Assembly (NCBI GenBank): GCA_001029695.1
Contig: CP011211.1
Coordinates: 1 to 32,000, forward strand
DNA: 32,000 nucleotides
From: Candidatus Saccharimonadota bacterium
Lineage (GTDB): Bacteria > Patescibacteriota > Saccharimonadia > Saccharimonadales > Saccharimonadaceae
Direction of reading: 5' to 3'
Under the pieces are notes generated by a model. The model ran no database searches. It was given only the letters and a program-made list of their open reading frames with translations, and was not told the origin of the DNA. The translations under genes and the position numbers were made by a program. Below, piece after piece: positions 603 to 1,476 of the stretch (positions are counted from its first letter, which is position 1; each line of letters opens with the position of its first letter).

Positions 603-632
603 CGTCCTAGGGCATGACGTAAAACTGCCCTA
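603..632 (+). repeat. Element stem-loop motif, copy 1 (stem 608-614/626-632, loop TGACGTAAAAC)
   Basis: Sequence cGTCCTAGGGCATGACGTAAAACTGCCCTA lies 6 nt after the stop of the 310..597 ORF. It forms a 7-bp perfect stem. Confidence 0.7.
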
Positions 633-860
633 AAAGCCATGCCGTACGGAACTATGATGTCTATTCTGCAAACAATAGTGCTGGCATGGAAGAGGCTTCC
701 TCTCTCTGTCTCTTCATTATACGGGTGAACGAACCGCATCAAGGTCGTTCGTCCCATTGGTAAACGTCAAGGGGCGCTCCACCTTGACCCAGTTCGTTGC
801 AGCCTCGTACCTCTCGGACAGAGAGGCAGGAAGACCTCTCGTAACTCGAAGGGAGGTCTT

Positions 861-1196
861 ATGGACACCAAGCAAGTACAAAACGAAACAGCAGCACAGA
901 TCGCTGCGCTCAATGACGCTGCGAGAAGCAATGCGTTTAACTATATGGCGACGCGAGGTGTTATGTCGCTCGATGAAGTGACGATCAGTGATATCTTTGT
1001 CGCGGTACAAGATTTTAGTAAGTTTACGGAAGACAACGACCCATACGGTGAACATGATTTTGGCTCATTCAAGATACATGGGCATAAGATCTTCTGGAAG
1101 ATAGACTATTACGACCAGCAGTTGAAATACGGGAGTGACCCGCTCGATCCGAATTGTCGGCGAGTTGTCACTATCATGTTACCCGAGGAGTATTAG
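861..1196 (+). CDS. DUF3768-family protein (111 aa)
   Basis: GGGAGG SD at 851-856. Motifs DNDPYGEHDFGSF, FWKIDYYD and the C-terminal RVVTIMLPEEY match my recollection of the DUF3768 family, which is common on plasmids and ICEs. Confidence 0.7.
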   Translation: MDTKQVQNETAAQIAALNDAARSNAFNYMATRGVMSLDEVTISDIFVAVQDFSKFTEDNDPYGEHDFGSFKIHGHKIFWKIDYYDQQLKYGSDPLDPNCRRVVTIMLPEEY

Positions 1197-1210
1197 CTCC
1201 TCGGTTTTTT
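1183..1210 (+). terminator. Rho-independent terminator after the DUF3768 gene
   Basis: Perfect 8-bp stem CCGAGGAG/CTCCTCGG with a 6-nt loop that contains the TAG stop, followed by T6 (1205-1210). Confidence 0.75.
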
Positions 1211-1238
1211 AGTCCTGGGCGCGACTGAAAACCGCCCG
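1211..1238 (+). repeat. Element stem-loop motif, copy 2 (stem 1217-1221/1233-1237, loop CGACTGAAAAC)
   Basis: Sequence aGTCCTGGGCGCGACTGAAAACCGCCCG lies immediately after the terminator T-tract. The stem is GGGCG/CGCCC, with compensatory changes relative to copy 1. Confidence 0.65.
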
Positions 1239-1264
1239 ACAAAGTTTAATAAAGGAGTATGTAT

Positions 1265-1441
1265 ATGAGTGCAGCAGACATGACGATAGAAGAATACCGC
1301 AAGTTTTGGGCAAAGGTTGCCAAAGAAAACGGTTGGTATAAAGAGCCGTTTTATGTACAGGTGTGGGTCGATGAGAACGGCATTATCACAGATAGCGTAT
1401 CTCATCGAGGTATGACAGAAGATATTGTTGTTAAGGAATAG
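1265..1441 (+). CDS. Hypothetical small element protein (58 aa; alternative start at 1259)
   Basis: AAGGAG at 1252-1257. The ATG at 1265 has better SD spacing than the ATG at 1259. The sequence looks like a small globular protein (EEYRKFWAKVAKENGWYKEPFYVQVW). Confidence 0.45.
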   Translation: MSAADMTIEEYRKFWAKVAKENGWYKEPFYVQVWVDENGIITDSVSHRGMTEDIVVKE

Positions 1442-1448
1442 TCCAACA

Positions 1449-1476
1449 CGTCCTAGGTAAGACGTAAAACTGCCTC
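1449..1476 (+). repeat. Element stem-loop motif, copy 3 (stem 1455-1459/1471-1475, loop AGACGTAAAAC)
   Basis: Sequence cGTCCTAGGTAAGACGTAAAACTGCCTC lies 8 nt after the stop at 1441. The stem is AGGTA/TGCCT and includes a G-U wobble and a compensatory A-T pair. Confidence 0.65.

Follow-up and report, generated by a model that had tools for sequence, protein, structure and literature searches.

Three copies of a 28- to 30-nt motif in the window (the whole stretch of 32,000 nt analyzed here, i.e., positions 1 to 32,000 of contig CP011211.1 of a Candidatus Saccharimonadota bacterium, GenBank assembly GCA_001029695.1) appear, as judged from comparative sequence data, to be compact H-type RNA pseudoknots on the mRNA-sense strand and not plain hairpins. 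The same comparison places the motif structurally with coremin, an exoribonuclease-resistant RNA (xrRNA) of the type xrRNA_C, and especially with its Watson-Crick variant (xrRNA_WCC). With this, a coremin-type pseudoknot is found in a new biological setting, namely in bacteria, phages and mobile elements. The motif usually lies 4–14 nt past a stop codon, and by analogy to coremin we lean towards the view that it would serve as a protein-independent mechanical roadblock behind a gene or tRNA, mainly against machinery that arrives from the 5′ side.

Fold and covariation of the motif

The copies at 603–632, 1211–1238 and 1449–1476, which had been named in the original prediction, were recovered both by a gapped pattern (GTCCTRGGN{2,6}GACKKAAAAC) and by a covariance model derived from 80 instances from outside and within the window. 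All three lie on the plus strand, the pattern found no others in the 32 kb, and its expectation from 100 shuffles was 0. In the covariance model search copy 3 scored 39.5 bits, copy 2 39.4 bits and copy 1 31.6 bits (E 7e-7), while the next best match in the 32 kb reached 7.8 bits. The individual parts of the copies, comprising stem 1 (S1), stem 2 (S2) and the loops 1–3 (L1–L3), are as follows:

603..632, plus strand: pseudoknot copy 1, 30 nt, found by pattern and covariance model; S1 C603-G619, G604-C618, U605-A617, C606-G616; S2, 7 bp, U608-A632 to A614-U626; L1 C607, L2 U615, L3 U620-C625 (UAAAAC)
1211..1238, plus strand: pseudoknot copy 2, 28 nt, found by pattern and covariance model; S1 A1211-U1226, G1212-C1225, U1213-A1224, C1214-G1223; S2 U1216.G1238, G1217-C1237, G1218-C1236, G1219-C1235, C1220-G1234, G1221-C1233; L1 C1215, L2 C1222, L3 G1227-C1232
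1449..1476, plus strand: pseudoknot copy 3, 28 nt, found by pattern and covariance model; S1 C1449-G1464, G1450-C1463, U1451-A1462, C1452-G1461; S2, 5 bp, A1455-U1475, G1456-C1474, G1457-C1473, U1458.G1472, A1459-U1471; L1 C1453, L2 A1460, L3 U1465-C1470

The original prediction described each copy as a simple stem that closes an 11-nt loop. This stem, the size of the "loop" and the pair changes between the copies (pair 1: A-U, G-C and A-U; pair 2: C-G, C-G and U.G; pair 5: G-C, G-C and A-U) are correct, but the fold has to be revised, as the presumed loop core GACkkAAAAC consists of the 3′ strand of S1 and the A-rich L3. The upstream N-GUC is complementary to GAC-N′ within this "loop," and the two bases that precede GUC and follow GAC also pair with each other (C-G, A-U and C-G in copies 1, 2 and 3). 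As this second helix is interleaved with the hairpin, an H-type pseudoknot is predicted. Its elements follow each other as N-GUC (5′ strand of S1), C (L1), UGGGCA (5′ strand of S2), a single nucleotide (L2), GAC-N′ (3′ strand of S1), NAAAAC (L3) and UGCCCA (3′ strand of S2), with the consensus N-GUC, C, UGGGYR, N, GAC-N′, N(A/U/G)AAAC and YRCCCA. S1 comprises 3–4 bp, S2 5–7 bp, and L1 is a single C that would cross the deep groove of S2. In pseudoknots, one nucleotide spans the deep groove of a helix of 6–7 bp and six nucleotides span the shallow groove of a 4-bp helix. By analogy to coremin and luteoviral knots, the A-rich L3 would lie in the minor groove of S1. Minimum free energy folding of the single copies was not significant (z = −0.1 to −0.9) on either strand, with the exception of the minus strand of copy 1, and was not used as evidence; the support for the structure comes from comparative data and not from thermodynamics.

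For this comparison, the pattern GTCCTRGG..GACNNAAAAC, in which the 3′ strand of S2 is left unspecified, was scanned over one-genome-per-species contigs and IMG/VR. The pattern is loose, and about half of the 240 resulting rows are chance matches, which were reused as an internal control. At least five contiguous S2 pairs in fixed register were present in 95 of the 237 non-redundant matches (40%), compared to 1.3% expected by chance. The closing pair N1-N16, for which there was no selection, is formed in 72% of the pseudoknot instances, but only in 45% of the non-pseudoknot matches (p = 1e-4), and six types of pair occur at this position. When 80 instances were aligned without gaps (A2), seven of ten pairs exhibited changes on both sides and 93.8% of the cells were paired, values that none of 500 shuffles reached, and pairing dropped to 18–45% when the partner strand was slid out of register. 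For S2 alone, five of six pairs are changed on both sides and 94.8% of the cells are paired; as S2 pairing was a selection criterion for A2, the percentage paired is inflated, which does not apply to the number of pair types and to the results for S1. The variants of S2 include GGGCA/UGCCC, GGGUA/UACCC, GGGCG/CGCCC, GGGUG/CACCC, AGGCA/UGCCU, GAGCA/UGCUC and GGCCA/UGGCU, and both helices covary over about 100 further instances. U.G and G.U pairs are frequent and fit the sense strand only. That the structure is under selection, as the compensatory changes among the three window copies had suggested, is hence borne out by covariation in instances outside the window.

S1 is GUC/GAC in 79 of the 80 aligned instances, and compensatory GAC/GUC occurs in others. 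When the architecture was searched for with no constraint on S1 other than complementarity, this flipped form was found in two phage contigs (L147/L235; contigs and loci outside the window are given by L numbers), and the change of the middle S1 pair from U-A to A-U was also observed in Moraxella phage Mcat1 and in RNA viruses. C5, which forms L1, is invariant (80/80), as are A18–A21 and C22 in A2. Deviating from this, a subclass of the motif in seven DUF3768 loci (L330, L343, L360, L364, L366, L367, L393), which reads ...GACGUAAAAAGGCUCA, has A-G in place of C22-U23 after the A-run (AAAAAGG) and an S2 shortened to 5 bp. Back-to-back tandem copies with a period of 26–33 nt were found in L030, L034, L250 and L252.

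Relation to coremin and other known RNAs

Coremin, which is known from beny-, cucumo- and many other eukaryotic RNA viruses, consists of a first hairpin (hp1) with the stem G2U3C4/G9A10C11 and the loop C5-G-A-A (consensus YGAD), a spacer G12-UU-AAA-CU-AC21, of which A16-A20 are essential, and a second hairpin (hp2) (Dilweg et al. 2019, PMC6546385). The hp1 stem of 3–4 bp has to pair, but its sequence is partly free. Loops of up to eight nucleotides are functional (Dilweg et al. 2023, PMC10520033). In xrRNA_WCC, which is known from Sanxia picorna-like virus 5 and from selected variants, the loop nucleotides 6–8 pair with the spacer nucleotides 18–20, so that S1 is followed by a one-nucleotide L1, S2 and an A-rich loop which is proposed to dock in the minor groove of S1 (Dilweg et al. 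2023, PMC10321173). Coremin stalls the exoribonuclease Xrn1 at the nucleotide before hp1 and blocks scanning ribosomes (PMC10520033, PMC10321173), and it induces 22–30% −1 frameshifting in rabbit reticulocyte lysate (PMC10520033, PMC10321173). The Watson-Crick forms were obtained from a screen of randomized variants with frameshifting in E. coli as readout, and without hp2 they keep their effect on ribosomes but lose resistance to Xrn1 (PMC10321173). For Xrn1 resistance, coremin requires an hp2 of at least 4 bp directly 3′ of the spacer, and the Watson-Crick variant likewise depends on hp2 (PMC6546385, PMC10321173).

The S1 of the motif, GUC/GAC, is identical to that of coremin and is extended by the covarying fourth pair N1-N16. 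The spacer of coremin, GUUAAACUAC, is nearly identical to GUAAAACUGC in the window copies 1 and 3 (GUC-C...-GAC-GUAAAACUGC), i.e., GUC-C...GAC-GUUAAAC-U in coremin compares to GUC-C...GAC-GUAAAAC-U in these copies, and the corresponding stretch in Synechococcus phage S-EIVl and many Saccharibacteria copies is GUUAAACUGC. The S-EIVl copy reads GUCC-CAAGCAU-GACGUUAAACUGC, GACGUUAAACUGC being also present in many Saccharibacteria copies, and GACGUUAAACUGCC is likewise the reading of many Saccharibacteria copies. Over the 10-nt spacer the consensus of the motif is NN(A/U/G)AAAC-U-R-C, with eight of ten positions shared with coremin in the window copies 1 and 3 and nine of ten in S-EIVl. The AAAC stretch, near-invariant in the motif, is common to both, and the position equivalent to the essential A20 of coremin is mostly a G. 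Like coremin, the motif lies at the beginning of an untranslated region, about 8 nt past the stop codon, is sometimes present in tandem and is restricted to the sense strand.

Nevertheless, the motif is not a strict member of xrRNA_C. With respect to the consensus of the first coremin loop (YGAD or YGNNAD), the first base is C (80/80), the second is U (80/80), the penultimate is A in 74 of 80 instances and the last can be any base including C. Furthermore, an hp2-like hairpin 0–3 nt past the knot was seen in only 8% of 98 instances, compared to 25% of 121 controls, and behind none of the three window copies. Instead, the loop of the motif forms a Watson-Crick helix of 5–7 bp with the sequence following AAAC, whereas S2 of coremin comprises 0–3 bp, and by analogy this long S2 may replace the short S2 that is stacked on hp2. 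The hosts differ as well, with the motif being found in phages, integrative elements and bacteria, all devoid of Xrn1, and coremin in eukaryotic RNA viruses.

The agreement with xrRNA_WCC is closer, as this variant shares with the motif S1, an unchangeable one-nucleotide L1, an antiparallel Watson-Crick S2 (covarying in the motif) and the A-rich loop. Its natural example starts 8 nt into the 3′ untranslated region and stalls ribosomes without hp2. Differences concern S2 (3 bp in xrRNA_WCC, 5–7 bp in the motif) and the identity of L1, which is G in the published xrRNA_WCC, C or U in xrRNA_C and always C in the motif (80/80). Besides one virus, xrRNA_WCC is known from synthetic variants only.

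Other known RNAs resemble the motif to a lesser extent. The H-type knots of luteoviruses and retroviruses (beet western yellows virus, BWYV; simian retrovirus 1, SRV-1; murine leukemia virus, MuLV) are of similar size (28 nt in BWYV), have a short L1 and an A-rich loop that forms a minor-groove triplex with S1, and lie 5–9 nt past the recoded codon, which is similar to the spacing of the motif. Unlike in these recoding knots, however, neither a slippery site nor a continuing ORF accompanies the motif, its spacing falls in all three frames and its primary sequence is strongly conserved. The knots of BWYV and mouse mammary tumor virus do not stall Xrn1 (PMC10321173). Repetitive extragenic palindromes (REP) and intercistronic stabilizer hairpins are also intergenic, lie behind stop codons in operons and are proposed to cause differential stability of cistrons, but REP sequences are lineage-specific DNA repeats that are spread by RAYT and form simple hairpins, whereas the motif is a predicted pseudoknot with cross-domain conservation which is also present in RNA genomes.

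The original prediction did not recognize any named RNA family. This agrees with Rfam 15, in which no family, including preQ1-I, riboswitches, small ribozymes and xrRNAs, overlapped the motif in the window (gathering threshold) or in 1–2000 (E ≤ 10), and none overlapped it in the phage and RNA virus loci; it does not hold with regard to the resemblance to coremin/xrRNA_C and its Watson-Crick variant (PMC6546385, PMC10520033, PMC10321173), coremin itself not being part of Rfam. A search of the full-text open-access and bioRxiv literature yielded no report of a coremin- or xrRNA-type element in prokaryotes or phages, so an earlier description elsewhere is possible, and a literature search with sequence strings of the motif returned nothing relevant.

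Several further candidates were rejected. A coded peptide (x-P-G-H-D-x-K-L-P) does not fit, as common variants put TAA in frame and changes in S2 are non-synonymous yet preserve pairing. Recoding by readthrough or frameshifting is contradicted by a spacing in all frames, in-frame stops within 0–23 codons and the lack of a long ORF spanning the motif. For a promoter of the sigma-70, sigma-54 or phage type, judged by inspection only, the spacing does not fit, and the covariation favors pairing. Type III toxin-antitoxin RNAs, mimics of CRISPR repeats and ends of TnpB omega-RNAs show no sequence resemblance, and their associated genes were not seen.

Distribution and genomic position

The motif was found in dsDNA and ssDNA phages, Saccharibacteria elements, bacterial leader regions and narna/ourmia-like RNA viruses. 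Among the phages are T4-like cyanophages, actinophages, Synechococcus phage S-EIVl with two copies, S-RIM4, Microbacterium phage Count, Moraxella prophages (Mcat1) and one Microviridae genome, with a handful of them being cultured, and the metagenome-assembled genomes (MAGs) belong to Saccharibacteria, Omnitrophota, Anaerolineae, Spirochaetota and others. No match was obtained in 5,426 E. coli genomes, and PLSDB plasmids, in which the motif is essentially absent, gave weak matches only. This absence from E. coli and near-absence from plasmids may explain why the motif has gone unnoticed.

An independent set of 80 metagenomic loci, which had been fetched solely by protein homology to DUF3768 (47–100% identity) and was then searched with the model, contained 51 motif matches in 34 loci, often two to five per locus, and all of them (51/51) were on the gene strand. 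Of 49 scorable copies, 46 began 0–25 nt behind the stop codon of an ORF with 40 or more codons, with modes at 5–8 and 14 nt. Homologous loci thus carry the motif and new copies keep the pairing, and a failure of either would by its own account have refuted the original prediction. It had also suggested looking for a co-occurrence with DUF3768, replication-relaxation and serine recombinase genes. The motif does occur in DUF3768 loci, but it is not specific to such genes or to the element in the window. The flanking gene families are heterogeneous and include DUF3768, KatG, AhpD-like CMD, glutathione peroxidase, endolysin, tail and replication genes. In one group of AT-rich IMG/VR contigs (L129, L131, L145, L164, L194; L126, L127, L147, L234; L183, L188, L195, L199, L043), the motif was observed after a gene for a KatG-type catalase-peroxidase or an AhpD-like CMD protein and before a glutathione peroxidase gene. 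Together with the leaders of Rrf2 and CMD genes described below, this constitutes a recurrent oxidative-stress theme, which may or may not be a coincidence.

The distribution also bears on a role at the DNA level, be it as single-stranded hairpin for recombination or a cassette boundary, as initially considered, for priming or as protein operator. Such a role could draw on the presence of the motif in ssDNA Microviridae and in an element with a replication-relaxation protein and a serine recombinase, as well as on a gene-boundary placement like that of attC sites. It is, however, most improbable and has largely been refuted, as the motif occurs in genomes of (+)RNA viruses, its G.U pairs are formed on the sense strand only and the copies of the DUF3768 set are without exception co-oriented with transcription; by these features and by its cross-phylum sequence identity it differs from integron attC and REP-type sequences. 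It is also present in T4-like cyanophages and actinophages, neither an integron integrase nor a RAYT gene was seen, and a pseudoknot topology would be needless for a DNA site.

With respect to genes, 64% of the pseudoknot instances, but only 13% of the control matches, start between −3 and 20 nt behind the stop codon of an ORF that has the same orientation and comprises at least 60 codons (p = 2e-15). The spacing has its mode at 5–8 nt, and none was closer than about 3–4 nt. On the downstream side, the contexts vary between a Shine-Dalgarno (SD) sequence and start codon 20–40 nt away, extended −10 or −35 elements, a convergent gene and a tRNA. In five loci (L037, L126, L147, L165, L173) a tRNA gene begins 3–4 nt past the knot, and a tRNA also adjoins the knot in L138. 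The knot of L230, which is part of a tRNA array, begins 1–2 nt past the 3′ end of tRNA-Lys. RNase P and RNase Z could release such a tRNA-flanked knot as an RNA of about 30 nt. In one group of contigs the knot occupies the loop of a terminator, the stem of which is formed by the flanking sequences and precedes a U-run, and a run of at least four T within 15 nt was found for 22% of the instances versus 7% of the controls.

A conserved short ORF of 16–30 aa (M-K-R-[YF]-M-[IM]-P-R-V-A-H-C-x-E-G-[HC]), which has a promoter and an SD sequence of its own, was observed in MAG contigs of Omnitrophota, Anaerolineae, Spirochaetota, Gracilibacter and others (L020, L030, L056, L067, L081, L092, L103, L111). 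It ends at or reads into the knot, which is sometimes followed by a U-run, and in several phyla the genes downstream of it code for Rrf2 regulators, an AhpD-like CMD protein or lipoproteins. No match to it was found in Pfam and NCBIfam, and it looks like a leader-peptide attenuator.

The motif also occurs in contigs of (+)ssRNA viruses (L198/L244, L212 and relatives). These encode a 949-aa protein with the motifs A (GDFSAATDG), B (MGSPISFPFLCLINL) and C (NGDD) of an RNA-dependent RNA polymerase (RdRp) and a coat protein with a tombusvirus S domain; ORFs on the opposite strand and SD sequences were not found. A PDB sequence search with ORF1 of L198 gave no match, and the RdRp was identified via its motifs. 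The knot lies 7–9 nt past the RdRp stop in nine contigs (L244, L245, L212, L246, L249, L250, L251, L252, L279), and L250 and L252 contain back-to-back tandem knots 7–8 nt past the stop of the coat protein. S2 covaries in these knots and S1 is GAC/GUC. Viruses with homologous RdRps share this site but differ in the form that occupies it, a hexaloop coremin-like one in L247 and the long-S2 one in L244, L250 and L252, and it was the sequence of L247, CGUCCGAAAUGACGUUAAUCUAC, that pointed to the coremin motif.

Directly 3′ of the knot, the region between the RdRp and coat protein genes matches the GIR1 lariat-capping (branching) ribozyme of Rfam, with scores of 62.6 bits (E 3e-12) in L244 (2918–3100), 38 bits in L251 (3020–3224) and 24.5 bits in L247 (1991–2251) against a gathering score of 100. 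The hallmark blocks AUGGGGU, CCAAAACGG, AUUCCGU, CUACACGG and GAUCCCAUACA are kept, all of them in L244, and in L249, L250 and L252 the pseudoknot abuts the first of them. This similarity suggests that the subgenomic RNA of the coat protein might be made by a ribozyme and be lariat-capped. Among the top-ranked literature matches there was no report of a GIR1-like region in such viruses.

In the window, all three copies lie inside a small element that is integrated at tRNA-Glu and contains the following features:

310..597, plus strand: ORF 1, DUF7249 family (PF23907, E 8e-12), 95 aa from ATG 310 with the SD sequence AAGGAGG; its TAG stop precedes copy 1
861..1196, plus strand: ORF 2, DUF3768 family (PF12599, E 1e-30), 111 aa; its TAG lies inside the terminator hairpin loop
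1183..1210, plus strand: intrinsic-terminator-like hairpin CCGAGGAG-UAUUAG-CUCCUCGG followed by U6 (stem 1183-1204, T-run 1205-1210), directly 5′ of copy 2
1259..1441, plus strand: ORF 3, 60 aa, no family; its TAG stop precedes copy 3
1990-2751, plus strand: Replic_Relax gene
2849-3034, plus strand: 61-aa ORF
2994-4730, plus strand: large serine recombinase, 578 aa from a TTG start; its 3′ end overlaps tRNA-Glu(CUC)
4690-4764, minus strand: tRNA-Glu(CUC)

As had been predicted, the copies follow stop codons (TAG 595–597, 1194–1196 and 1439–1441 for copies 1, 2 and 3), with gaps of 5, 14 and 7 nt from the last base of the stop to the start of the motif. Downstream of copy 2 there is an SD sequence (AAAGGAG) after about 12 nt and the next ORF after 20 nt, an arrangement that recurs in nine loci (L002, L005, L007, L046, L101, L326, L340, L360, L385). 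None of the three copies has a U-tract behind it, so an intrinsic terminator was rejected, and the middle copy indeed lies directly behind a separate terminator, 1183–1210, which is the sole terminator-like site on the plus strand within the scanned 1..3000. The TAG of the DUF3768 gene (1194–1196) is located in the loop of this hairpin, and the order of stop-in-loop, U-run and knot is conserved in many homologous loci (L002, L007, L046, L101, L326, L340, L360, L385). A terminating ribosome would hence melt the terminator. TAG appears to be commoner ahead of the motif, with all three window copies and 26 of 40 motif-followed ORFs of the DUF3768 loci as compared to 77 of 206 other ORFs, but this excess is weak, as the host ends about half of its genes in TAG and the control set includes spurious ORFs. 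Homologs of ORF 3 were found 3′ of the motif in L002 and L007.

The tRNA-Glu(CUC) is likely the integration site of the element, whose right end is marked by the serine recombinase running into the 3′ part of this tRNA and whose left end lies at or beyond the start of the window, where a 7-bp inverted repeat (ATACCCC/GGGGTAT) was observed at 2–19. No pseudoknot copy was found with the covariance model in 1990..4764 or in the host part 4800–32000; the remaining 27 kb are ordinary host chromosome with genes for a glutamyl-tRNA synthetase (GluRS), a sortase, glycosyltransferases and an ABC protein. The stretch of about 510 nt between copy 3 and the Replic_Relax gene (1477–1989) lacks a convincing ORF, is very A+T-rich in its final 130 nt and could hold a promoter, an origin, an oriT or a non-coding RNA with the knot at its 5′ end.

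The proposed roadblock and its alternatives

RNA stability or processing, one of several functions initially considered, remains the best-supported class. From the observed structure, covariation, strand, position and similarity to coremin we infer a roadblock activity as well as the enzyme concerned and the direction in bacteria. Placed right behind the end of a functional unit (the stop codon of an ORF or the 3′ end of a tRNA), the knot would halt 5′-to-3′ machinery at the boundary of this unit. Candidates for such machinery are the exoribonucleases RNase J or Xrn1, 5′-end-dependent scanning by RNase E and non-terminated or sliding ribosomes, and a precedent for a viral xrRNA acting on a bacterial enzyme is given by an unrelated flaviviral xrRNA which blocks bacterial RNase J1 (PMC5760640). 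This would shield the downstream segment, be it a cistron, a tRNA or a non-coding stretch, from decay or traffic that arrives by way of the upstream gene. As the same knot would probably also hinder 3′-to-5′ trimming, and a compact knot may block both directions, it could serve as a punctuation mark of the transcript; in the window, the knots would punctuate a three-gene operon of small element genes.

Several observations weigh against such a roadblock. The second loop base is U, where coremin requires G. In the absence of hp2, the knot might by the published rules stall ribosomes but not exonucleases, unless an S2 of 6–7 bp substitutes for S2 plus hp2. Some hosts (Moraxella, Xanthomonas) are not known to have RNase J. 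The motif is linked to the end of the upstream gene even if spacers of hundreds of nucleotides follow, as behind the window copies 1 and 3, and a tRNA that starts 3–4 nt downstream is more in keeping with a 3′-end cap generated by RNase P than with a 5′ block. Nothing downstream needs 5′ protection where a promoter or a convergent gene follows or where the knot is part of a terminator stem with U-run (L129, L132, L160, L213, L234). With respect to direction the positional data are therefore mixed, as the tRNA starts, the promoters and convergent genes and the linkage to the upstream stop fit a 3′ cap, whereas L230 fits a 5′ cap.

These positional data lead to an alternative in which the knot mainly blocks PNPase and RNase II/R and, after cleavage just downstream by an endonuclease or RNase P, would stabilize the upstream cistron in the manner of REP and intercistronic hairpins. 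The linkage to the upstream stop and not to a downstream start, also in long intergenic regions, speaks for it, as do the constant gap of 3–4 nt to the +1 position of the tRNA, so that the 3′ tail after RNase P cleavage would be very short, the contexts without a downstream unit to protect and the elevated frequency of T-runs. In L230, however, a 3′ cap would hinder 3′ trimming of the tRNA, a terminator hairpin is already present upstream of copy 2, and the documented activity of the related coremin is directed against 5′-to-3′ enzymes. In addition, knots of the xrRNA type generally open more readily from their 3′ side. A function mainly as 3′ cap thus appears rather unlikely.

The spacing to the stop codon, which resembles that of frameshift stimulators also in the RNA viruses, keeps a role linked to termination alive. 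With the stop in the A site, the knot would lie at the mRNA entry channel and could modulate termination, recycling, re-initiation or coupling, or attenuation in leader short ORFs. About 60% of the stop-adjacent cases have a spacing of 4–9 nt (7–9 nt in RNA viruses), coremin strongly stimulates frameshifting and blocks ribosomes, for which the Watson-Crick form does not need hp2, and the short ORFs upstream of Rrf2 and CMD genes end at or read into the knot. Yet copies that are flanked by tRNAs only have no upstream ORF, the spacing is not restricted to a frame and no extended ORF passes through the knot, which excludes recoding, and the second spacing mode at 12–14 nt is outside the geometry of frameshifting. 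We consider such a ribosomal signal unlikely.

Specific recognition would be a further possibility, for example as processing site of the RNase P or Z type, as tiny self-cleaving ribozyme, as aptamer of preQ1-I size or as a released decoy RNA of about 30 nt. About 17 of the 28 positions are near-invariant across very distant replicons, the knots between tRNAs would be releasable by RNase P and RNase Z, and in the RNA viruses a GIR1-like ribozyme adjoins the knot. A short S1 and an A-rich L3 are also the architecture of preQ1-I-type aptamers. Nevertheless, this appears highly unlikely, as no riboswitch or ribozyme model of Rfam matches, the flanking genes are heterogeneous, riboswitches do not typically occur in several copies per operon or behind genes, and the invariant positions are those that are essential in coremin, which acts without ligand or protein.

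So far, exoribonuclease-resistant RNAs have been a hallmark of eukaryotic RNA viruses. If the proposed roadblock is correct, the same device would be used where Xrn1 is absent, i.e., in dsDNA phages, Microviridae, integrative elements of Saccharibacteria and bacterial leaders. Tentatively, and with less confidence than in the roadblock itself, the motif might represent the first natural class of exoribonuclease- and ribosome-resistant RNA in bacteria, phages and mobile elements, which would be shared with eukaryotic RNA viruses by descent, transfer or convergence and would cut polycistronic transcripts into segments of differing stability and cap released RNAs; its long S2 would then reveal the fold of coremin, in which hp2 would take the place of an extended S2. 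For the pseudoknot model of coremin, the structure of which remains to be solved, the natural long-S2 versions supply direct evidence by covariation, and they hint at the role of hp2. Carriers of the motif that can be cultivated are Microbacterium phage Count, Moraxella prophage Mcat1 and the Synechococcus phages S-EIVl and S-RIM4, and a cistron insulator of 28 nt would suit synthetic operons. For the organisms that carry it, the roadblock would mean a so far unrecognized control of bacterial mRNA decay (by RNase J, RNase E scanning or 3′ exonucleases) or of the passage of ribosomes at the borders between cistrons.

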